Below, one piece after another: positions 5,468 through 59,680 of a stretch of 64,000 nucleotides of DNA. The stretch is from a virus (lineage: Duplodnaviria > Caudoviricetes). The stretch's first letter is position 1; each line of letters begins with the position of its first letter. Both the position numbers and the translations under genes were made by a program. Under the pieces are notes generated by a model that saw nothing but the letters and a program-made list of their open reading frames with translations, searched no databases and was not told where the DNA came from. The stretch spans positions 64,001 through 128,000 of IMG/VR virus record IMGVR_UViG_3300015606_001334, one strand, 5' to 3'.

Positions 5468-5542
5468 TGGAGACCGTAGAGGGAATCGAACCCTCGTTAT
5501 CGGATTTGCAATCCGGTGCACTAACCACTCTGCCATACGGTC
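5468..5542 (-). tRNA. tRNA-Cys(GCA)
   Basis: cloverleaf, loop TTGCAAA, GGTTCGATT, T-CCA end. Confidence 0.9.
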
Positions 5543-5597
5543 TGGCGTTCTTATTTAGAATCAACCAAATAGGAACAAAATTTATTGGATAGCTTTA

Positions 5598-5709
5598 TGA
5601 AGCTAATACGGTGCTTGAATCCGCGGTAACCCTACTCTTCCTGGGCCTTCATGACATCTGCCGGCTAGCATGTCACTCTTATCGGTTATCCAGTGTAGTT
5701 ACTATTAGC
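5598..5709 (-). ncRNA. tRNA-like structured RNA (7-bp terminal stem, long irregular arm, T-arm-like hairpin)
   Basis: GCTAATA/TATTAGC, GTAAC/GTTAC, CTGG/CCAG, TGACAT/ATGTCA, CGG-ATTCAAGCA-CCG, 3' TTCA. Confidence 0.55.
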
Positions 5710-5710
5710 T

Positions 5711-5784
5711 TGGCAAGGGTGGAAGGTAATGCTCCTTCTTCCTCTGGTTCAAAGCCAGATACTTTACTTTTAAGCTACACCCCA
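5711..5784 (-). tRNA. tRNA-Gln(TTG), atypical T and D loops
   Basis: TCTGG-CTTTGAA-CCAGA; T-loop AGCATTA; G-CCA end. Confidence 0.75.
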
Positions 5785-5790
5785 ATTGTT

Positions 5791-5974
5791 CGCGGAGTTT
5801 TTGCAATCCTCATAGTTCGATAAGCTCAGAGGAAGACTGTAAATTCGTAAACCCAAACTCCCTAAGGCTTGTCGATCAATCATTCCGGCTTATCGTCCAG
5901 AACAAAGGACCTATACGAATATTCGACGGAATTATTTTTCGGTTCAATGCGCATTGACCGAGTTTGGTTCCGCC
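5791..5974 (-). ncRNA. ~185-nt pseudoknotted RNA between tRNA-Pro and tRNA-Gln (manA-motif-like candidate)
   Basis: GCGGA/TCCGC closing stem, CCAAACTC/GAGTTTGG, GTCGA/TCGAC, crossing helices ATTCGTA/TACGAAT and GATAAGC/GCTTATC. Confidence 0.6.
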
Positions 5975-6051
5975 TGGTCTCGCTGGTAGGATTCGAACCT
6001 ACGAAATCCTGTTCCCAAAACAGGTGGTATAGACCACTAACCGACAGCGAG
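5975..6051 (-). tRNA. tRNA-Pro(TGG)
   Basis: CCTGT-TTTGGGA-ACAGG, GGTTCGAAT, A-CCA. Confidence 0.9.
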
Positions 6052-6086
6052 ATATTTTGCCATCTTTCGACAGCAAATTGTAAAAC

Positions 6087-6383
6087 TTAGCCTTCGAGAC
6101 CTAGCTCGTCGACATAAACTTCATCATTTTCTTTGTGGAAGATCTGATGAGTGTTGCGCTGATCATTGAGAATTGTTTCTCCTCTTCCACTCATTTCGAT
6201 CGAAATCACTTCACCAGTAAATTCGATGATTTCAGCAAATTGAGAAGCGTTTTCAACGTACTCGTATGCTTGCTTTGGATCATTGAAAACACGGTAAGTT
6301 GGACCATCGCCATCGTTGTTGATGCCAAGATAACGCTTACCAGCTGATTCGCTGATCTTGATCATTTCTTGTAGAAATTTCAT
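6087..6383 (-). CDS. late hypothetical protein inside tRNA array, probable internal head protein
   Basis: true start MKFLQEMIKISE at 6383 (the track's start lies inside tRNA-Arg); TATAAATA at 6406-6413. Confidence 0.6.
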   Translation of the reverse strand: MKFLQEMIKISESAGKRYLGINNDGDGPTYRVFNDPKQAYEYVENASQFAEIIEFTGEVISIEMSGRGETILNDQRNTHQIFHKENDEVYVDELGLEG

Positions 6384-6405
6384 TTTGGAACCTTTCAGAA
6401 AAAGG

Positions 6406-6413
6406 TATTTATA
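6406..6413 (-). promoter_or_regulatory. T4-type late promoter TATAAATA (representative)
   Basis: exact TATAAATA also at 7044-7051, 32370-32377, 55919-55926, 57306-57313; NATAAATA variants at 13014-13021, 53129-53136 and 45054-45061 (+). Confidence 0.7.
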
Positions 6414-6415
6414 TT

Positions 6416-6493
6416 TGGCGCCCTCGGAGAGATTCGAACTCCCGACTTCTTGTTTCGAAGACAAGCACTCTAGTCCAACTGAGTTACGAAGGC
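6416..6493 (-). tRNA. tRNA-Arg(TCG)
   Basis: CTTGT-CTTCGAA-ACAAG, AGTTCGAAT, G-CCA. Confidence 0.9.
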
Positions 6494-7014
6494 ATGTTTA
6501 ATATTTCATCAGTCATATGTCGCGAGATAAATCTTTTGACTTGAGTATGACTAATTCCTAATTCTTTACTACATCGAGTAACCCAACCCCAGCCAGTAGC
6601 AGAGTGCCTTCTTACTGCATCCTTATAGGAGTTTAGTTTCTCTTTTGAATATTGTCTACCAGCAGATGGTTTGCCCTTTCTTCTAGAAGCTATCATCTCC
6701 TTTGCCTTCTCTTCACCGTATTTCATTTTCATACGGTCGTTGAATGACAAGTACGTTCCAGCTTCTTTTTGATCGAGGTGATTATCTGTTGGAGTTCCCC
6801 AATACAAATGATTGGGGTTACTGCACTTTTCATTATTGCATGCATGACACAAATAAATTTTTGATCCTCTAGGGATTGTTGTATCTAAGAAATCAGCTAG
6901 TAATCCCCTGAATTCTTTTGAGTAACCTCCTCGTTCGATACAATTTTCTTCTAGACTGAGATGGGAACGTCTTTCTTCTCTACTTAGATTGATGTACTCA
7001 TTTATGTCTTGCAT
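6484..7014 (-). mobile_element. free-standing HNH homing endonuclease in tRNA array
   Basis: LCHACNNEKCSNPNHLYWGTPTDN HNH motif, C-terminal HTH-like segment, late promoter; stop codon lies in the tRNA-Arg 5' end. Confidence 0.75.
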
Positions 7015-7061
7015 TTTGAACCTTTAACTAAGAATGTATTTCCTATTTATAGGTTCAGATT

Positions 7062-7139
7062 TGGCACCGCTAGGGGGACTTGAACCCCACCCCTCGAGAG
7101 TGACAGTCTCGCATGCTCAACCATTAACACTATAGCGGT
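7062..7139 (-). tRNA. tRNA-Asp(GTC)
   Basis: CGAGA-CTGTCAC-TCTCG, GGTTCAAGT, G-CCA. Confidence 0.9.
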
Positions 7140-7229
7140 GTAGAGGAACGTTTTAGGCCTTTCAAACGTTCAGAGAATATTTAGCCGGACCTGACTTGCA
7201 GGTAAACCTTCCCTTGACTGATTTCAGGC

Positions 7230-7550
7230 TCAGTGAACCTTAATTTTCGGCAAGGCCGCAATAAGCGCCTTTTTCAAATTCTTGTATTTCGGCTTATCAG
7301 ACATGAGTTGAATCACTTCGTCAAGATCAACACCGTGTTCTGATAGATGTTTTCTGAAATTGCTACGACGATTGTACTCACTAGCCTGTTTTACACAAGC
7401 ATAGCATTGAGTGCGGTTCTTAAGACGAACTGCGCCACAAGTAATGCATAGATCCTGTGCTTTCCGGAAAGCACGAAGTTTACGATTGCTTACTGCTTGC
7501 GGAGTATCGGAGTTTTTGCCTTCTGAACGAAGATCTTGAGTTTCAGCCAT
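7230..7550 (-). CDS. zinc-finger protein
   Basis: CITCG...CYAC; own early promoter at 7579-7608. Confidence 0.6.
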   Translation of the reverse strand: MAETQDLRSEGKNSDTPQAVSNRKLRAFRKAQDLCITCGAVRLKNRTQCYACVKQASEYNRRSNFRKHLSEHGVDLDEVIQLMSDKPKYKNLKKALIAALPKIKVH

Positions 7551-7613
7551 TTTGTTCTTCTCGCTTTGAAAAAGTTAAATTATAACTTCAAAACGAGAAG
7601 ATGTAAACTGTTT

Positions 7614-8015
7614 TTATATCTTGAAATACTGGAATTCTACATAAGACTCAATTTCAGGAGGTTCCTTCAACATGATTTGAGTCTCAGTGATTTCAACATA
7701 AGCTTGTCTTGGTAGTTTTCGTCCATTGACAAAAACGAGGACTGAGTCAGTATGCATCACGTATGGAACATCAAGAGTAAACATCTGTTTGTCTTTGACA
7801 TCAATGTAAAATTCTTGACAGATCATTTTCCAAGCTGGCAGATCACCTAATGCTTTGTTCCAAATACCGTTTGCTTGAATGTAAAGTCCCTTCTTAACAG
7901 GATCCTTGCAATAAATGATTTGACCTTCTTCGAAGATGCCGTACTCAGGAACTTCATCATAGACTGGAATCTTAACCAGGTTTCTGATGACCTCTTCATT
8001 CGCATAAACTCTCAT
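7614..8015 (-). CDS. hypothetical protein, possibly virion-associated beta-sandwich module
   Basis: FTL..PY....SVLVFVNG..L....Y.E pattern seen in phage baseplate/tail proteins; AATAAATA upstream. Confidence 0.45.
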   Translation of the reverse strand: MRVYANEEVIRNLVKIPVYDEVPEYGIFEEGQIIYCKDPVKKGLYIQANGIWNKALGDLPAWKMICQEFYIDVKDKQMFTLDVPYVMHTDSVLVFVNGRKLPRQAYVEITETQIMLKEPPEIESYVEFQYFKI

Positions 8016-8055
8016 TTGTTTCTTCCTTATAGTTATGGATGAGATATTTATTGAT

Positions 8056-8129
8056 TGGCAGAGCGTGAGGGAATCGAACCCCCATCTGCGGACTTGGAAA
8101 CCGTTATGTTACCACTACACCAACGCTCT
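8056..8129 (-). tRNA. tRNA-Trp(CCA) with weakened anticodon stem
   Basis: ACGGT-TTCCAAG-TCCGC (A27:C43 and U31:U39 unpaired), U11-A24, G73-CCA. Confidence 0.75.
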
Positions 8130-8135
8130 ATATTT

Positions 8136-8210
8136 TGGTACTCCATACGGGATTTGAACCCGTCCGCCTACCTTGAAAGGGTAGTGACCTAACCGCTAGT
8201 CTAATGGAGT
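8136..8210 (-). tRNA. tRNA-Glu(TTC)
   Basis: CTACC-CTTTCAA-GGTAG, GGTTCAAAT, A-CCA. Confidence 0.9.
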
Positions 8211-8213
8211 ATA

Positions 8214-8285
8214 TGGCCCGCGGAAGAGGAGTCGAACCTCCAAGGCCAAGATTCGTAGTCTTAGCTCCATCCATTTGGCCCGCGG
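8214..8285 (-). tRNA. tRNA-Arg(ACG), reduced D arm
   Basis: TAAGA-CTACGAA-TCTTG, GGTTCGACT, G-CCA. Confidence 0.75.
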
Positions 8286-8293
8286 ATTTTTGT

Positions 8294-8371
8294 TGGGGCG
8301 ATCGACGGGACTTGAACCCGCAAGTACCTGATTCACAGTCAGGTGTGTCTACCAATTCCACCACGATCGCC
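8294..8371 (-). tRNA. tRNA-His(GTG) with encoded G-1
   Basis: CCTGA-CTGTGAA-TCAGG, G-1:C73, CCA. Confidence 0.9.
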
Positions 8372-8388
8372 ATAGTGAAAAATAAATC

Positions 8389-8475
8389 TGGCTAGGGAGG
8401 AAGGAGTCGAACCTTCACAAAGGCTTGCGCCGACAGAGTCAAAGTCTGTTGCTCTACCAGTTAAGCTACTCCCCA
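8389..8475 (-). tRNA. tRNA-Gln(TTG) with long variable arm
   Basis: ACAGA-CTTTGAC-TCTGT; V-arm GGC-GCAA-GCC; G-CCA. Confidence 0.85.
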
Positions 8476-8481
8476 ATTATT

Positions 8482-8585
8482 TGGCGGCGGATCAATTAAC
8501 CCAAACCTAGTCTAACCAACCGGCCGATTGGACTCGTCTATTGTGAGGGAAATTAGAAGAAGCTAGCATTCTAACTTAACCCGCC
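8482..8585 (-). ncRNA. CCA-terminated non-cloverleaf RNA
   Basis: GGCGGGTTAA/TTGATCCGCC terminal stem + G-CCA; internal hairpins TTAGAA/TTCTAA and CCAATCG/CGGTTGG; no T-loop or anticodon arm. Confidence 0.55.
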
Positions 8586-8660
8586 TGGTGCCAGCGATTG
8601 GTAACGATCCAACCTCTCAAGATTTTCAGTCTCGCGCTAATCCATCTCAGCTACACTGGC
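8586..8660 (-). tRNA. tRNA-Phe(GAA), atypical T-loop
   Basis: CGAGA-CTGAAAA-TCTTG; T-loop ATCGTTA; A-CCA. Confidence 0.85.
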
Positions 8661-8669
8661 ATTAAAATT

Positions 8670-8745
8670 TGGTGCACCCAGTCGGAATCGAACCGACGCT
8701 ACCATGCTCTTCAGGCATGTGCTCTACCAACTGAGCTACAGGTGC
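8670..8745 (-). tRNA. tRNA-Phe(GAA)
   Basis: CATGC-CTGAAGA-GCATG, GGTTCGATT, A-CCA. Confidence 0.9.
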
Positions 8746-8750
8746 ATATT

Positions 8751-8826
8751 TGGCACTGCGTACGGGTTTCGATCCCGTTGCCTCTACCGTGACAGGGTAG
8801 CGCTCTCCCAATTGAGCTAACGCAGT
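8751..8826 (-). tRNA. tRNA-Asp(GTC)
   Basis: CTACC-CTGTCAC-GGTAG; T-loop ATCGAAA; G-CCA. Confidence 0.88.
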
Positions 8827-8833
8827 ATTGATT

Positions 8834-8917
8834 TGGTACAGCGTGGGGGAATCGAACCCCAGCCCGAAGGCGGTACCTTGAAAGGGTACTGACCGTTACC
8901 AGCAGTCGACACGCTGT
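8834..8917 (-). tRNA. tRNA-Glu(TTC) with long variable arm
   Basis: GTACC-CTTTCAA-GGTAC; V-arm GCC-TTCG-GGC; A-CCA. Confidence 0.82.
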
Positions 8918-8934
8918 ATTAAAGATTGCTTAGG

Positions 8935-9009
8935 TCGGAGTGAGAGGATTTGAACCTCCGTCCTCCTCCTTCCAAGGGAGGCCGTCTACCAGGCTGACAT
9001 TACACTCCG
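8935..9009 (-). tRNA. tRNA-Pro(TGG), CCA not encoded
   Basis: CCTCC-CTTGGAA-GGAGG, GGTTCAAAT; ends A-CCT; flanked by a 12-bp inverted repeat. Confidence 0.82.
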
Positions 9010-9030
9010 CCTAAGCAATCTCTTTACTTC

Positions 9031-9438
9031 TTAAACTTCTTTGATTCTTCGAGCTAAGCTTCGATAACCATATCCAGCAGGGTGGATCTTGTCCTGGCTT
9101 AATTCTTGAACCTTTATCTCAATAGTCTTATCACCGTTTTTACTGGCGAGTTCCTCAACTATCTTTCTCTGTACAGGCTTGATACTCTTGCTTGGTAAAA
9201 TCCAAACAACCTGACCTGTAATGGAGCTTCTCAGCTTTTCTAGTGCTTCAAGAGTTTTGATCTGTTTGGTATCGTTTGTCCCAAGGCTGATAATCGTCAT
9301 TGGCAACTTCATGTTGAAGTCATGACGTTTAACGAAATCCTCAGAATTTATACCAGACTTTGCGTTTGCTTTGCATTCATGCATTACATTCGAAAGACCA
9401 TAAGCAATTGAGTCACCAATAATTAAACATTCAAGCAT
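9031..9438 (-). CDS. SGNH/GDSL hydrolase-like protein
   Basis: IIGDSIA, SLGTND, DKIHP blocks. Confidence 0.75.
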   Translation of the reverse strand: MLECLIIGDSIAYGLSNVMHECKANAKSGINSEDFVKRHDFNMKLPMTIISLGTNDTKQIKTLEALEKLRSSITGQVVWILPSKSIKPVQRKIVEELASKNGDKTIEIKVQELSQDKIHPAGYGYRSLARRIKEV

Positions 9439-9461
9439 ATTTTCCTTTTCAGTTTAAGTAA

Positions 9462-9536
9462 TGGTGGTGATGGCGGGAGTCGAACCCACTTGGTACTCCT
9501 TATGAGGGAGGCGCATAACCGTTCTGCCACATCACC
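9462..9536 (-). tRNA. tRNA-Met(CAT) (Ile2 not excluded)
   Basis: CCTCC-CTCATAA-GGAGT, GGTTCGACT, A-CCA. Confidence 0.85.
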
Positions 9537-9550
9537 AAAAGCTATCCAAT

Positions 9551-9563
9551 TTGTTAAAGAGCG
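9551..9563 (-). promoter_or_regulatory. boxA antitermination site
   Basis: CGCTCTTTAACAA versus rrn boxA TGCTCTTTAACA, 15 nt before the first tRNA. Confidence 0.8.
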
Positions 9564-9586
9564 TACTACTAAAAATCTGTGTTACT

Positions 9587-9624
9587 AAAACAATTAAGGG
9601 AAACCAATTTCTTGATTTCCCTTA
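9587..9624 (-). terminator. conditional (attenuator) terminator
   Basis: TAAGGGAAATCAA-GAAA-TTGGTTTCCCTTA then ATTGTTTT. Confidence 0.75.
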
Positions 9625-9684
9625 GTATTTTTACTTCTTAGAGATTTGTTACTTAAGCGTAACCATCTCCTTCAATACTAAGGG
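9619..9684 (-). promoter_or_regulatory. antiterminator hairpin competing with the terminator
   Basis: CCCTTAGTATT (9674-9684) is perfectly complementary to AATACTAAGGG (9619-9629); inner GAGAT/ATCTC and GTTAC/GTAAC stems. Confidence 0.75.
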
Positions 9685-9796
9685 CCTTACAAGGTTCATC
9701 ATCATGCATAAACTCTGGGCGGCGATCGCACTGCTCAGTGCGCTGCCACTGGCAGAAATCCTGATCAAATTGTTGTGCGAAAGTTGCGAAGTTCAT
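9653..9796 (-). CDS. tRNA-array attenuator leader peptide, 47 aa (not in ORF track)
   Basis: MNFATFAQQFDQDFCQWQRTEQCDRRPEFMHDDEPCKALSIEGDGYA; AAGGA upstream; composition mirrors the downstream tRNAs. Confidence 0.8.
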   Translation of the reverse strand: MNFATFAQQFDQDFCQWQRTEQCDRRPEFMHDDEPCKALSIEGDGYA

Positions 9797-9895
9797 GATG
9801 TTGCTAAGTCCTTGTAAAAAGTTAATGTTGCATATTACTATATATTAGATTCGGCAGAATTTTTGTTTTTCTGCTGTTATCCAACCGTTAGATGA

Positions 9896-9924
9896 ATTAT
9901 ATCATTTCTACCGGATTTGTAAAC
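9896..9924 (-). promoter_or_regulatory. early promoter of leader/tRNA array
   Basis: GTTTACA-N16-TATAAT. Confidence 0.75.
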
Positions 9925-55891: not shown

Positions 55892-55951
55892 TCATTTTAC
55901 TCCAAACTCCTTTAGATTTATTTATAGAATGAGGAACAAAATGTTACCGGG

Positions 55952-56023
55952 TGGGTAATGTGGGGATCGAACCCACGACCCGCGGATTTAGAATCCGCTG
56001 CTCTACCATTGAGCTAATTACCC
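55952..56023 (-). tRNA. amber suppressor tRNA (anticodon CTA), CCA not encoded
   Basis: GGGTAAT/ATTACCC, GCTC/GAGC, GCGGA-TTCTAAA-TCCGC, GTGGG-TTCGATC-CCCAC, A73; own early promoter at 56040-56069. Confidence 0.9.
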
Positions 56024-57995: not shown

Positions 57996-58721
57996 TTACG
58001 TCCAGCTCAGAATCTTTTTGCGGGTAAATGAAGTTAGGGTTGCAATCGATAGACCTAAAAATCCAATTACCAAAAGCAGGTAGTAGGTTTTGTCGAAATC
58101 AAGATAGTGCGAACTATCAATTAGTCGATAGCCTAATCCACTAGCAGAACCCAGAAGCTCAGCAAGAATGAGCGTCTTAAAGGCTGAGTTAATGCTGATA
58201 TCGATTCCAGAAATGATAGAAGGCATAGATCCTGGCAGGATAACCTTAGCAAATGCAGAAGGCCAAGTCAATTCAAAATTTCGAATTAGAGGCCGGTACT
58301 TATCAATTGTTTGTTCTACACTGTCAATTGTTACGACTAAAGTTGGAACAGCAGAAACAAGGAACACAATGAAAATTGCCGCTGCTTCTGTAATGCCGAA
58401 GATCATTGTAATCAAAGGAGTTAGCGCCGTGATAGGCATCGCTCTTAAACAATTGATAGATCCGATAAGAAGGCCCTTAATCTTTTTGTTTAGCCCGATT
58501 AGAGTACCAAGAGCTATTGAAAATGGTATTGAGATAGAAAGACCGATTGCAAGCCTCGAAAGGCTTGCAATCACGTCCATCTCAATCTCGTTTGACGTAG
58601 TCCATGTTTTAACAAATGATGCAGCAATTTGCTCAATTGTTGGGAAGTAATGAACATTCAGTATAGTGGCAGTTACCTGCCAGCATACTATCAAAAAGAT
58701 TGGGAAGACGATCTTAATCAT
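57996..58721 (-). CDS. ABC transporter permease (SsuC/TauC-like)
   Basis: SL.R...G, LR..P..AL.P, V.LP...P.I..G, AELLG...GLG. Confidence 0.9.
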   Translation of the reverse strand: MIKIVFPIFLIVCWQVTATILNVHYFPTIEQIAASFVKTWTTSNEIEMDVIASLSRLAIGLSISIPFSIALGTLIGLNKKIKGLLIGSINCLRAMPITALTPLITMIFGITEAAAIFIVFLVSAVPTLVVTIDSVEQTIDKYRPLIRNFELTWPSAFAKVILPGSMPSIISGIDISINSAFKTLILAELLGSASGLGYRLIDSSHYLDFDKTYYLLLVIGFLGLSIATLTSFTRKKILSWT

Positions 58722-59680
58722 TTAGGTGCAGTGAATTTATAGCTTTGGTTGAATTCAGCTGGGACGGTAAAGGTAAGAGGAACCTTATCGATGCTGCGCA
58801 AGAATCGTAGAAGCCCAACGATATGCTCATTTGCCAAAAGCGGAGTTGCTGTATAAGCAATCGAAGTCTTTGGCGGAGTCAATGCCCTGTATCCTGCTGC
58901 TGTTGCGTCGGCTTGGGCCTGCTCAACTTCTTTGATACGCTTTGGATTGTTAACTGCATTCATCATGTCCTGATAGCATGCACGTAGCTTGGTTTCCTTG
59001 TGTTGAGGGAACTTGCTAGTGGTGTACACTGGACGAGTTACCTGCTTGTAGTCTTCAATCAAAACGGCTTTGCCTGAGTCAGTATATTGTTGAGAGAATG
59101 GGTAGGTTGCGTTAAACGCATCAATCAAACCCTGCTCAAAAGCGATTGGTTGGGCATCAGTTTGAAAGTTCACTACCTTAACATCTGCATTGGCACCAGT
59201 GGTAGAAAGACCACGCTTTTCAAATGCATCAGAAATGATCTGTTCGCTATGCTGTCCCTTAAGGATCGCAACTTTCTTACCCTTCAGCGACTGGTAGGTG
59301 TTTAGTCCTGGACGAGAGATAAGAGCAGAACCGCCTGAAGTAACGTTGGCAAACACCCGAATGTCAACACCCTTGCCAGCTGCAACAAGAGCAGAACCCA
59401 AAGTACCAGTTGCGAGGTCAAATCCTTGGCGATCTAATGCTTGAATCATTCCAGAAGACGGATCGAAACCGGCCGAATTTTTTTGGGTATACTGAACGTC
59501 TAGACCTTGCTTTTTGCAGAAGGTTGGAAGAAGACCGAGCAAAGTGTATGGATCAGTATTGCTGCCGATAATCTTTACGACATTGTCATCTTTATTCTGA
59601 GTTGCAGCATTTGCTGAAACAGAATAGCTTGACGCGGCCAAAATTGAGGATAGGACGATGCTTACGATTTTTTTATTCAT
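58718..59680 (-). CDS. ABC transporter substrate-binding protein (SsuA/TauA-like)
   Basis: signal peptide, LKGKKVA, G.IDA. Confidence 0.85.
   Translation of the reverse strand: MNKKIVSIVLSSILAASSYSVSANAATQNKDDNVVKIIGSNTDPYTLLGLLPTFCKKQGLDVQYTQKNSAGFDPSSGMIQALDRQGFDLATGTLGSALVAAGKGVDIRVFANVTSGGSALISRPGLNTYQSLKGKKVAILKGQHSEQIISDAFEKRGLSTTGANADVKVVNFQTDAQPIAFEQGLIDAFNATYPFSQQYTDSGKAVLIEDYKQVTRPVYTTSKFPQHKETKLRACYQDMMNAVNNPKRIKEVEQAQADATAAGYRALTPPKTSIAYTATPLLANEHIVGLLRFLRSIDKVPLTFTVPAEFNQSYKFTAPK

Follow-up and report, generated by a model that had tools for sequence, protein, structure and literature searches.

Two complementary tRNA units of a large uncultured phage are probably gated by leader-peptide attenuators

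Known attenuators and the phage tRNA units

Attenuation of transcription through translation of a short leader peptide is known from enterobacterial operons (trpL, hisL, pheL, leuL, thrL, and the multivalent leader of ilvGMEDA). The two main blocks of tRNA genes in a ~360-kb uncultured phage genome (359,550 bp), which jointly cover all twenty amino acids, show a comparable organization. As in attenuators of the trpL/hisL type, a short ORF rich in regulatory codons is combined with an intrinsic terminator and with an antiterminator that takes its 5' arm from the end of the ORF. In that type a ribosome at the stop codon leads to termination and a stalled ribosome to read-through, and the same logic would presumably hold here. 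Unlike the amino-acid operon attenuators, these elements are phage-encoded, and the regulated genes are tRNAs instead of biosynthetic enzymes. The operon leaders carry runs of codons for one to three amino acids, whereas the phage leaders sample 6-14 families and up to ~20 anticodon species with roughly one to four codons each, and two units tile the whole code.

Three other regulatory systems are related in part. The attenuator of E. coli pheST (pheM leader) likewise controls a component of the translation apparatus and uses the level of charged tRNA as its signal; it serves one amino acid and a protein-coding target of a cellular gene, whereas the product of the phage units is the tRNA itself, i.e. 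the feedback would be direct. The T-box riboswitches of Firmicutes also report specific tRNAs by conditional termination with codon-like specificity, but they bind uncharged tRNA directly via a specifier codon without translation, while the phage elements contain a translatable ORF; at Rfam gathering thresholds, the analyzed window and the loci of the second array gave tRNA matches and no T-box. The boxA/Nus antitermination of rrn operons is resembled in that a long transcript, for the most part untranslated, has a 12/13 boxA match after the terminator and before its first tRNA. This likeness is one of sequence, and in the second unit the nearest boxA-like site (genome 148114, 12/13) lies inside the array, 1.4 kb downstream of the terminator. 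Among phages, the T4 cluster comprises tRNAs, small stable RNAs and ORFs under early and middle promoters, and here, too, phage tRNAs are interspersed with ORFs. We know of no leader-peptide control of the T4 cluster, and no published description of leader-gated phage tRNA arrays was found in the literature searched.

Unit 1

The window, i.e. the whole stretch of 64,000 nucleotides that was analyzed, contains the first array at 5468-9536 on the minus strand, with 14 confident and 2 weak tRNAs according to ARAGORN and Rfam. ARAGORN predicts Cys, Pro, Arg(tcg), Asp, Trp, Glu, His, Gln, Phe, Phe, Asp, Glu, Pro and Met(cat), which amounts to ten families (Cys, Pro, Arg, Asp, Trp, Glu, His, Gln, Phe, Met); neither program predicts a tRNA for Ala, Gly, Ile, Leu, Val, Ser, Thr, Asn, Lys or Tyr in this region. 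The features of the array in window coordinates are as follows.

9462..9536, minus: tRNA(CAT), first gene of the array (ARAGORN, Rfam), read as elongator Met
8056..9009, minus: core tRNA block with Pro, Glu (84 nt), Asp, Phe, Phe, Gln (87 nt), His, weak Arg(acg), Glu and Trp
8215-8287, minus: the weak tRNA-like Arg(acg), 21.4 bits, below the 29-bit cut-off
7579..7607, minus: predicted early sigma-70-type promoter within the array (sequence match)
7062..7139, minus: tRNA-Asp(gtc) (ARAGORN, Rfam)
6484..7014, minus: HNH-endonuclease-like ORF inside the array (phrog_16521, 7e-13; HNH families, 1e-9 to 1e-7)
6416..6493, minus: tRNA-Arg(tcg) (ARAGORN, Rfam)
5975..6051, minus: tRNA-Pro(tgg) (ARAGORN, Rfam)
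5711..5784 (Rfam 5714-5784), minus: tRNA-Gln(ttg), from Rfam and low-stringency ARAGORN only
5468..5542, minus: tRNA-Cys(gca), last gene of the array (ARAGORN, Rfam)

Upstream of the first tRNA gene, we find the following elements.

9896..9923, minus: predicted early sigma-70-type promoter (TTTACA, 16 nt, TATAAT with TG; 11/12 matches)
9815..9871, minus: head motif, an A-rich 17-mer followed by TATATAG/TATAGT, which precedes both leaders
9653..9796, minus: leader ORF 1, 47 codons, ATG start at 9796, AAGGA 12 nt upstream
9689..9775, minus: sensor window (codons 8-36 of leader 1)
9674..9693, minus: predicted antiterminator 5' arm in codons 35-41 of leader 1 (folding with the terminator 3' arm withheld)
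9611..9629, minus: predicted antiterminator 3' arm, overlapping the terminator 5' arm (folding)
9585..9624, minus: intrinsic terminator with a 13-bp hairpin (9624-9595; -16.1 kcal/mol) and a T-rich tail
9551..9563, minus: boxA-like 13-mer, 12/13 against the rrn boxA consensus, with the terminator upstream and the first tRNA downstream

The composition of leader 1 is striking. In the sensor window, all residues but one (28/29) come from families that the array serves, and each of the ten families is represented. That residues of the missing families are nearly absent from it had been noted in the initial annotation; the sole exception in codons 8-36 is a Thr. When all six frames of the 359,550 bp were scanned, the best 28-residue window for this residue set was leader 1 itself (27/28); the runner-up windows score 24/28 and fall in off-frames or run across stops. 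The set has a background frequency of 0.36, which gives a binomial expectation of ~1e-11 per window. Outside the sensor window, off-set residues occur at codons 2-7 (Asn/Ala/Thr/Ala) and in the tail (Lys37, and Gly43, Gly45, Tyr46 and Ala47, these beyond the antiterminator arm). The Shine-Dalgarno spacing of this leader, 12 nt, is long. DNA and protein searches of a phage collection and of IMG/VR (own record excluded) returned no relatives of the leader 1 region or of the 185-aa ORF upstream of it.

The leader region is predicted to adopt two alternative folds of similar energy (-64.0 and -56.8 kcal/mol). Because the antiterminator arm is located 18-37 nt ahead of the stop codon, masking by a ribosome would be indirect. 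The boxA-like element was matched against the rrn boxA consensus; five 12/13 matches occur in the genome against ~0.4 expected by chance.

For the CAT tRNA, Met had been favoured over Ile2 on the grounds that the leader contains an internal ATG and no ATA, and our results fit this view. Pairing of G1-C72 indicates that the gene is not an initiator; the identity relies on this pair, on the acceptor-stem pairs and on the ATG/ATA logic, a BLAST comparison of the gene with E. coli genomes having given zero matches. The logic is extended by the second unit, in which the leader has ATA and the array has weak CAT-anticodon tRNAs, and by a TilS-like protein encoded by the phage.

Unit 2 and the leaders of related phages

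The initial annotation had predicted a second array behind a complementary leader. Such a unit exists, ~21.6 kb beyond the end of the window (genome coordinates).

149680..149570, minus: leader ORF 2, 36 codons, ATG at 149680, GAGGA 3 nt upstream
149536-149509, minus: terminator with a 10-bp hairpin and a T-rich tail
149199..140759, minus: array 2 with Ser, Lys, Ile, Asn, Tyr, Ala, Leu, Thr, Gly and Val tRNAs

Residues 2-29 of leader 2 all belong to the set Ala/Gly/Ile/Leu/Val/Ser/Thr/Asn/Lys/Tyr (28/28), and all ten are represented. The antiterminator arm predicted by folding overlaps or abuts the stop codon, and the two alternative folds are close in energy (-50.8 and -50.2 kcal/mol). A 63-aa ORF adjoining the leader has zero relatives in IMG/VR. 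Besides the ten families, the array holds an Arg(tct), an atypical long-arm GCA tRNA and the weak CAT tRNAs. The expected division of the tRNAs into separate modules is borne out by two complementary units, but the split follows the anticodon and not strictly the amino acid. Leader and terminator recur at the second array, while a boxA-like element adjoining the terminator does not. As for leaders in front of further tRNA clusters, unit 2 possesses one and several small clusters do not: none was found at the third unit (Ala, Ile, Gly, Arg(tct); genome 129218) or at the Gly/Thr pair at genome 58427-58972, and the tRNA genes scattered singly or in pairs are without leaders.

The exact 17-mer of the head motif occurs at two sites of the genome only (73871 and 149749). 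Its TATATAG context is shared by the third, leaderless tRNA unit (genome 129191), giving three occurrences in the genome in total, and the motif is probably a second, special promoter. A standard sigma-70 promoter is not supported, the -35 being poor, nor is a promoter of the T4 late type, TATAAATA sites not being associated with leaders in this phage. An exact search of IMG/VR for the 17-mer yielded 19 loci lacking the head-motif context and any leader or TATATAG downstream, which we take to be chance matches.

Relatives with different tRNA splits possess leaders that follow these splits, namely RsoM2USA, XacN1, SCTP-2 and the closest relative, a 363-kb IMG/VR contig. In RsoM2USA, leader A scores 21/21 for the nine families that its array covers, and leader B keeps to the set of its own array throughout its first 31 residues; array B also shows a similar boxA-like element with the same 5' flank adjoining its first tRNA. 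The XacN1 leader has 34/35 residues in eight families, all eight present; a canonical terminator is missing. SCTP-2 contains four cassettes of 3-6 tRNAs each, and the closest relative combines a 14-family leader with a complementary 6-family leader. The only two off-set residues of the larger one are both ATA codons, and its array has four CAT tRNAs. The statement that array 1 covers exactly half of the amino acids is thus arithmetically correct for its ten families, but it carries no special meaning: the closest relative divides the code 14+6 and others differ again. The exact halving is incidental; the complementarity recurs in the closest relative.

Altogether, five phages provide eleven leaders, and each of these matches its own array although the arrays differ in composition. 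In a 9x9 matrix of leaders against arrays, the own array scores best in 9/9 cases (permutation p = 5e-6), a test that is partly circular since the relatives' leaders came from a scan rewarding a match to downstream tRNAs. The peptide sequence is unconserved between relatives, whereas flanking motifs, Shine-Dalgarno context and terminator tails are conserved. In 10 of the 11 leaders an intrinsic terminator begins 22-37 nt past the stop codon. When the terminator 3' arm was withheld from folding, its 5' arm paired with a segment at or adjoining the stop codon in both leaders of this phage, both of RsoM2USA and three of the SCTP-2 cassettes, but not in the first SCTP-2 cassette or XacN1; duplex folding extends the pairing to all four cassettes. 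For the leaders of the closest relative, the pairing was assessed via duplex energy only. The antiterminator arm overlaps or abuts the stop codon in RsoM2USA A and B and in all four SCTP-2 cassettes, where the leader arms end -3 to +1 nt from it and compensatory differences link the leader 3' end with the terminator 5' arm. It is the antiterminator arm that the off-set residues of the leader tails encode. RsoM2USA cluster C yielded no upstream leader, and none that convinces was found in Vibrio phage 2.275.O, RAS14 or 121Q; Xoo-sp13 has a degenerate one only.

Proposed mechanism and meaning

We propose, with a probability of roughly 0.8, that each of the two main tRNA units is gated by a ribosome-mediated transcription attenuator. 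Sequence and folding reveal an ORF with start codon and ribosome-binding site, matching codons, an intrinsic terminator and a mutually exclusive antiterminator; anatomy, composition and codon match, alternative pairings and the co-variation of leaders with arrays in relatives are all observed. We infer that the leaders are translated and that termination and read-through really take place, as well as what the physiological signal is. According to this model, RNA polymerase would first transcribe a short leader ORF whose codons are those decoded by the downstream tRNAs. When every one of these codons is read fast, the ribosome would reach the stop codon and occlude the end-of-ORF segment, so that the terminator hairpin forms and transcription halts before the tRNA genes. 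If charged tRNA is scarce for any sensor codon, slow reading would stall the ribosome upstream, the end-of-ORF segment would pair with the terminator 5' arm as antiterminator, and polymerase would continue into the array. Each tRNA set is probably made when its codons are read slowly; as the output of the array replenishes what the leader senses, this would constitute negative feedback on decoding capacity. The share of unit 1 would be Cys, Pro, Arg(CGN), Asp, Trp, Glu, His, Gln, Phe and Met, that of unit 2 Ala, Gly, Ile, Leu, Val, Ser, Thr, Asn, Lys, Tyr and Arg(AGA).

A more specific reading, to which we incline, is a codon-by-codon decoding test: the complementary leaders would sample nearly every anticodon species of the phage, each gating its own set, so that tRNA synthesis tracks the decoding capacity of the host in real time. 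Its role may be to detect and compensate the loss of host tRNAs caused by host shut-off or anticodon-nuclease defences. Part of this reading, and held with similar reserve, is that the partition of the code is evolutionarily fluid and that leaders co-evolve with arrays.

A real leader-peptide attenuator might report amino-acid supply or general translation status instead of tRNA abundance, which we consider unlikely. Stalling responds to charged tRNA, and starvation and tRNA shortage look the same in a sequence; yet the regulated genes are tRNAs, which would be unable to relieve amino-acid starvation. The codons of leader 2 likewise point to sensing at the resolution of tRNA species: 31 of its first 32 codons are decodable by array-2 anticodons, and 19 of 20 anticodon species have a cognate codon, as against 14.2 +/- 1.5 under random synonymous choice (P = 0.0008). 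The four other leaders tested lack a significant synonymous-codon signal (P = 0.36-0.81), as amino-acid sensing would lead one to expect. Against it, the two leaders share out Arg by codon box as the Arg anticodons of their arrays do, leader 2 using AGA in front of an array with Arg(tct) and leader 1 using CGC. The three CGC of leader 1 are covered only by the sub-threshold Arg(acg) gene, and Arg(tcg) has no cognate codon there. Furthermore, ATA codons occur only in leaders whose arrays have CAT tRNAs beyond a single Met.

Still less probable is that the leader-terminator modules serve mainly as temporal insulators against read-through from early promoters, the translation of the ORF being incidental and the block being lifted by a phage antitermination factor (e.g. 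at the boxA-like site) or by a later promoter class. An early promoter does lie just upstream of unit 1, one of 51 such sites in the genome (50/51 on the minus strand), a boxA-like element follows the terminator, and the head motif, found only at tRNA units, resembles an activator-dependent promoter. However, the boxA-like element lies downstream of the terminator and therefore cannot act on it, and insulation leaves unexplained why in every phage the leader resembles its array in composition and codons, and why stop codon and antiterminator arm overlap. Early promoters also lie downstream of the attenuators, within array 1 and, beyond the leader-2 terminator, at genome 149242 and 148275, so that attenuation cannot be the sole control. 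Finally, functional small peptides or chance ORFs, with hairpins that belong to upstream genes as terminators or processing sites and a coincidental resemblance to the arrays, would fit the modest single-window statistics of the unit-2 residue sets (background frequency 0.58-0.69), but this is very improbable given eleven leaders in five phages, unconserved peptides whose composition follows the array, a stop codon on the antiterminator arm in every SCTP-2 cassette, and the genome-wide maximum at leader 1.

If attenuation is indeed what gates these units, leader-peptide control would extend from amino-acid and synthetase genes to tRNA genes, in a new multiplexed format that covers 6-14 amino acids and up to ~20 anticodons in ~30 codons. 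The elements are short and modular, and cultured carriers exist (RsoM2USA, XacN1, SCTP-2). The complementary units could serve as internal controls for each other, as swapped sensors should swap the responses, and the leaders could be natural reporters of specific tRNA supply. Why large phages carry tRNAs is debated, with codon-usage matching, decay of host tRNAs and escape from tRNA-cleaving defences as proposals. A built-in sensor would mean that the phage measures decoding capacity directly, which would favour the explanations based on supply and replacement.

The phage genome and its tRNA arrays

The window covers positions 64001-128000 of a single contig of 359,550 bp and 42.9% G+C, which the IMG/VR virus record gives as complete by CheckV. 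The phage encodes a tail sheath, an NAD-dependent ligase and a ribonucleotide reductase, and is jumbo myovirus-like. Its family-B DNA polymerase matches that of Ralstonia phage RsoM2USA best (48.9% identity) and that of Xanthomonas phage XacN1 second best (37.7%), followed by Xoo-sp13, Stenotrophomonas RAS14/CM1, Vibrio phage 2.275.O, Salicola phage SCTP-2 and Rak2-like coliphages (about 30%). The closest relative among those found is G001, an IMG/VR contig of 363,531 bp. Genome-wide, 45 tRNAs and a tmRNA are predicted, every one on the minus strand. The features below are given in window coordinates or in genome coordinates, the latter referring to the whole record.

tRNA arrays, leaders and accompanying features
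Window 9653-9796, minus strand: leader 1, a 47-codon ORF upstream of array 1 on the same strand
Window 5468-9536, minus strand: array 1, with Cys, Pro, Arg(tcg), Asp, Trp, Glu, His, Gln, Phe, Phe, Asp, Glu, Pro and Met(cat) tRNAs (ARAGORN)
Genome 149680..149570, minus strand: leader 2, a 36-codon ORF upstream of array 2
Genome 149199 down to 140759, minus strand: array 2, the second large array, with Ser(gga, gct, tga), Lys(ttt), Ile(gat), Asn, Tyr, Ala, Leu(tag, gag, caa), Thr(ggt, tgt), Gly(tcc, gcc) and Val tRNAs
L020:10656-10770, L020:15014-15152, L021:7173-7298, L021:7357-7483: insertion-bearing tRNAs
Window 8389-8475, 8834-8917; genome 143877-143962, 146193-146283, 148008-148092: long-arm tRNAs
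Genome 156013-156450 and 158584-159114: region of the tmRNA and the TilS-like gene

In array 1, 13 of the 14 minus-strand tRNAs called by ARAGORN are supported by Rfam, which adds one at window 5714-5784, identified as Gln(ttg) by ARAGORN at lower stringency. Uncertain as a gene of this array is a tRNA-like Arg(acg) at window 8215-8287, which scores 21.4 bits against a cut-off of 29 bits and is missing the bases between the acceptor and D stems. With or without it, the array covers ten amino-acid families; neither ARAGORN nor Rfam places a tRNA for Ala, Gly, Ile, Leu, Val, Ser, Thr, Asn, Lys or Tyr within it. The initial annotation had described this array as serving half of the amino acids, with the residues of the other half nearly absent from the sensor, i.e. 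the leader codons that match the array tRNAs. Both observations hold: 28 of the 29 residues at codons 8-36 of leader 1 belong to array-1 families, and all ten families are represented. A six-frame genome scan ranks leader 1 as the best 28-residue window for its residue set (27/28); the next-best windows reach 24/28 and are off-frame or cross stops. An HNH-endonuclease-like ORF (window 6484-7014, minus strand) lies within array 1, amid several small inter-tRNA ORFs of unassigned function.

It had also been predicted that a second locus would carry the ten missing families behind a leader rich in these residues, and array 2 with leader 2 is such a locus. Residues 2-29 of leader 2 all come from the ten families absent in array 1 (28/28), and each of the ten is present. 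This residue set is commoner in the genome, where five windows score 28/28; leader 2 alone combines that score with all ten residue types, one other listed match having nine and the rest seven or eight. Leader 2 is followed by a 10-bp hairpin and a T-rich tail. Far from lacking a leader and terminator, or having a leader of unrelated composition, this second unit (leader 2, terminator and array 2) has both elements and the matching composition. Array 2 additionally holds Arg(tct) and an atypical long-arm tRNA of 86 nt with a GCA anticodon.

Some tRNA bodies at genome 136656-147483 carry insertions of 40-60 nt (Rfam matches of 115-139 nt, intron-containing in ARAGORN too); they could be extra members of array 2, although their anticodon calls are uncertain. 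Several tRNAs of 84-91 nt combine a long variable arm with anticodons (Gln, Glu, Cys, Asn, Lys) whose families normally have a short one, and a normal-length copy with the same anticodon is usually present as well.

The match between leader and array extends to the codons. Under strict wobble, 31 of the first 32 codons of leader 2 can be read by array-2 anticodons, and the leader contains a cognate codon for 19 of the 20 anticodon species of the array (two of the 20 being weak calls); only the atypical GCA tRNA has none. With the peptide held constant and synonymous codons sampled from the phage's own usage, only 14.2 +/- 1.5 species are expected to be covered (P = 0.0008). Hence the codons for four Leu, two Thr, two Lys, two Gly and five Ser residues appear to be chosen so as to sample different isoacceptors. 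For four leaders of related phages the test was not significant, because the expected coverage was already high.

Arginine is split by codon box: AGA occurs in leader 2 and Arg(tct) in array 2, CGC three times in leader 1 and CGN readers in array 1. For the CAT tRNA of array 1, Met had been favoured over Ile2 on the grounds of an internal ATG and no ATA in leader 1. This identity fits the further data: ATA is found in leader 2, array 2 holds weak CAT-anticodon tRNAs, and one of these has C4-G69 and C5-G68, which are TilS determinants in E. coli, where the array-1 tRNA has G4-C69 and A5-U68. The latter tRNA has a paired G1-C72 and is therefore not an initiator; the CAT tRNAs of array 2 are likely ATA readers. 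The phage encodes a TilS-like protein (PF01171, 128 bits). Unit 2 is preceded, at a distance of a few kb, by this TilS-like lysidine synthase gene and by the phage tmRNA, which ARAGORN calls in permuted form with a tag that ends in AA. Between the two arrays, every tRNA that reads ANN codons falls into array 2 save for the Met tRNA of array 1 (Ile, Thr, Asn, Lys, Ser-AGY, Arg-AGA and the presumed ATA-reading CAT tRNAs in array 2); the small unit of G001 comprises Ile, Lys, Asn and Thr together with Ala and Val. We would speculate that the split between units tracks a shared property, e.g. modification at position 37.

Predicted terminators and promoters, and tRNAs outside the leader units

Minimum-free-energy folding predicts a terminator hairpin at the end of the leaders, in this phage as in RsoM2USA. 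Constrained folding that withholds the 3' arm, mimicking transcription, pairs the 5' arm of the terminator with a terminal stretch of the leader ORF.

Predicted antiterminator arms
Window 9693-9674 and 9629-9611: leader 1
Genome 149587-149566 (across the stop codon) and 149545-149526: leader 2

The predicted energies of the terminator and antiterminator forms differ little (-50.8 vs -50.2 kcal/mol for leader 2; -64.0 vs -56.8 kcal/mol for leader 1). Some tail residues outside the families of the own array are encoded by the antiterminator arm, namely Ala-Leu-Ser-Ile in leader 1 and Glu-Phe-Pro-Val in leader 2; Lys37, Gly43, Gly45, Tyr46 and Ala47 of leader 1 lie beyond the arm, which leaves them without this explanation. 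According to the proposed model, a ribosome at the stop codon would block the antiterminator and thereby cause termination, and a ribosome stalled in the sensor would leave the antiterminator free, so that transcription reads through. This arrangement is that of the trp and his attenuators. Leader 1 is a weaker fit; its arm lies 18-37 nt upstream of the stop codon, and occlusion by the ribosome would therefore be indirect.

An identical 17-mer upstream of leaders 1 and 2 has no other copy in the genome. It is part of a head motif of ~45 nt ending in TATATAG, of which the genome contains one further copy. Of 51 genome matches to the pattern TTTAC[A/G/T]-N16/17-TATAAT, 50 fall on the minus strand, and 28 of the 51 lie between genome 55 and 157 kb; judged by sequence, these sites evidently represent the putative early promoter class of the phage.

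Head motif and early-type promoters
Genome 129191-129218, just past the window end: leaderless unit, with the third head motif 21 nt before tRNA-Ala, then Ile, Gly and Arg(tct)
Window 9923-9896: early-type promoter just upstream of unit 1 (leader 1, terminator and array 1)
Window 7607-7579: early-type promoter inside array 1
Window 5158-5131: early-type promoter, pattern match
Genome 149242: early-type promoter past the leader-2 terminator, immediately preceding the first tRNA
Genome 148275: early-type promoter downstream of the leader-2 terminator

Because early-type promoters occur past the leader-2 terminator and within array 1, the attenuators would gate only part of the transcription, perhaps that from the head motif. 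Neither a leader ORF nor a terminator was found at the four-tRNA unit at genome 129218, which is outside the leader-gated units, as are Pro at 133183, Lys(ctt) at 136981, Gly/Thr at 58427-58972 and a CTA suppressor tRNA at window 55950-56023 (minus strand). RsoM2USA too possesses a leaderless unit (MG752970, about 75988), which shares the promoter-like motif found at the two leaders of that phage. The amber-suppressor-type CTA tRNA scores 74.8 bits in Rfam and has an early-type promoter just upstream (genome 120068); such a tRNA is also present in RsoM2USA, XacN1 (two copies), Xoo-sp13, RAS14 and G001 (two copies).

Between the leader-1 terminator and the first tRNA, window 9563-9551 matches the boxA consensus at 12 of 13 positions. 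In RsoM2USA, a similar element with the same 5' flank adjoins the first tRNA of array B; the closest such match in unit 2 follows the terminator by 1.4 kb. Such an element could plausibly keep the polymerase processive on a largely untranslated transcript.

Leaders in related phages

Related phages divide their tRNAs differently, and their leader sequences follow suit.

tRNA arrays of two relatives
RsoM2USA array A, 111831-104529: Pro, Cys, Glu, Tyr, Leu, Trp, Ser, His, Val
RsoM2USA array B, 87179-83386: Met, Ile, Asn, Gln, Lys, Arg(acg), Phe, Ala, Val, Pro, Asp, Thr
SCTP-2, four small cassettes: Asp/His/Met/Ile; Lys/Phe/Trp/Val/Ser/Gly; Ser/Glu/Thr; Leu/Pro/Tyr/Gln

In RsoM2USA, all 21 central residues of the 25-codon leader A belong to the nine families of its array, each of which is present, and the first 31 residues of leader B all fall within its own array's set, with Arg as CGA and CGC. 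XacN1 has a 41-codon ORF 33 nt upstream of Phe, Asp, Ile, Ala, Val, His, Ser and Arg tRNAs, with 34 of 35 central residues in these eight families and all eight present; a canonical terminator was not found at this leader. In the large leader of G001, 33 of 35 residues match the 14 array families (14/14 present), both exceptions being ATA codons, and the array itself has four CAT tRNAs. Its second leader consists of Ala, Ile, Lys, Asn, Thr and Val (18/18 residues), upstream of exactly those tRNAs; 14 and 6 families again form a complete, disjoint partition of the twenty amino acids.

In all four cassettes of SCTP-2, the leader is 82-98 nt from the first tRNA, a canonical terminator is present, and the end of the leader arm falls at -3 to +1 nt relative to the stop codon. 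The last leader codons and the bases 5' of the shared CCCUUCC terminator arm differ compensatorily between cassettes. Two of the leaders have near-identical upstream regions of 60 nt (MF360958 308681-308740 and 316137-316196) and sensors that differ in step with their tRNAs; from their sequences, these two cassettes look duplicated and then retuned.

In a 9x9 leader-by-array matrix, every leader scores highest with its own array (mean z 4.0 on the diagonal vs -0.5 off it; permutation p = 5e-6). This test is partly circular, because most of the relatives' leaders came from a scan that rewards a match to downstream tRNAs; the specificity of each leader for its own array over the others is not. 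Vibrio phage 2.275.O, RAS14 and 121Q yielded no convincing leaders, and Xoo-sp13 has only a degenerate homologue of the XacN1 leader.

Relation to known attenuators

A T-box reading of the leaders is ruled out, as the Rfam matches in these regions are tRNAs only. In mechanism, the units would resemble the pheST attenuator and the leader-peptide attenuators that control trp, his, phe, leu, thr and ilv. Of the five features that define this class, four were examined and are present; the fifth would be dependence on translation and charged tRNA. Unlike in the known cases, the targets here are tRNA genes, the sensor is multiplexed, and the units are paired as complements. In full-text literature searches, no description emerged of phage tRNA genes under the control of leader peptides or attenuators; the RsoM2USA genome paper, whose annotation is limited to ORFs above 50 codons, makes no mention of leaders, attenuators or terminators. 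Paired attenuators that gate tRNA genes would be a variation on a known mechanism, apparently undescribed in the literature searched. With a probability of roughly 80%, we presume that the two units are complementary attenuators of the leader-peptide type, each matched in its codons to its own array and providing feedback on decoding capacity.
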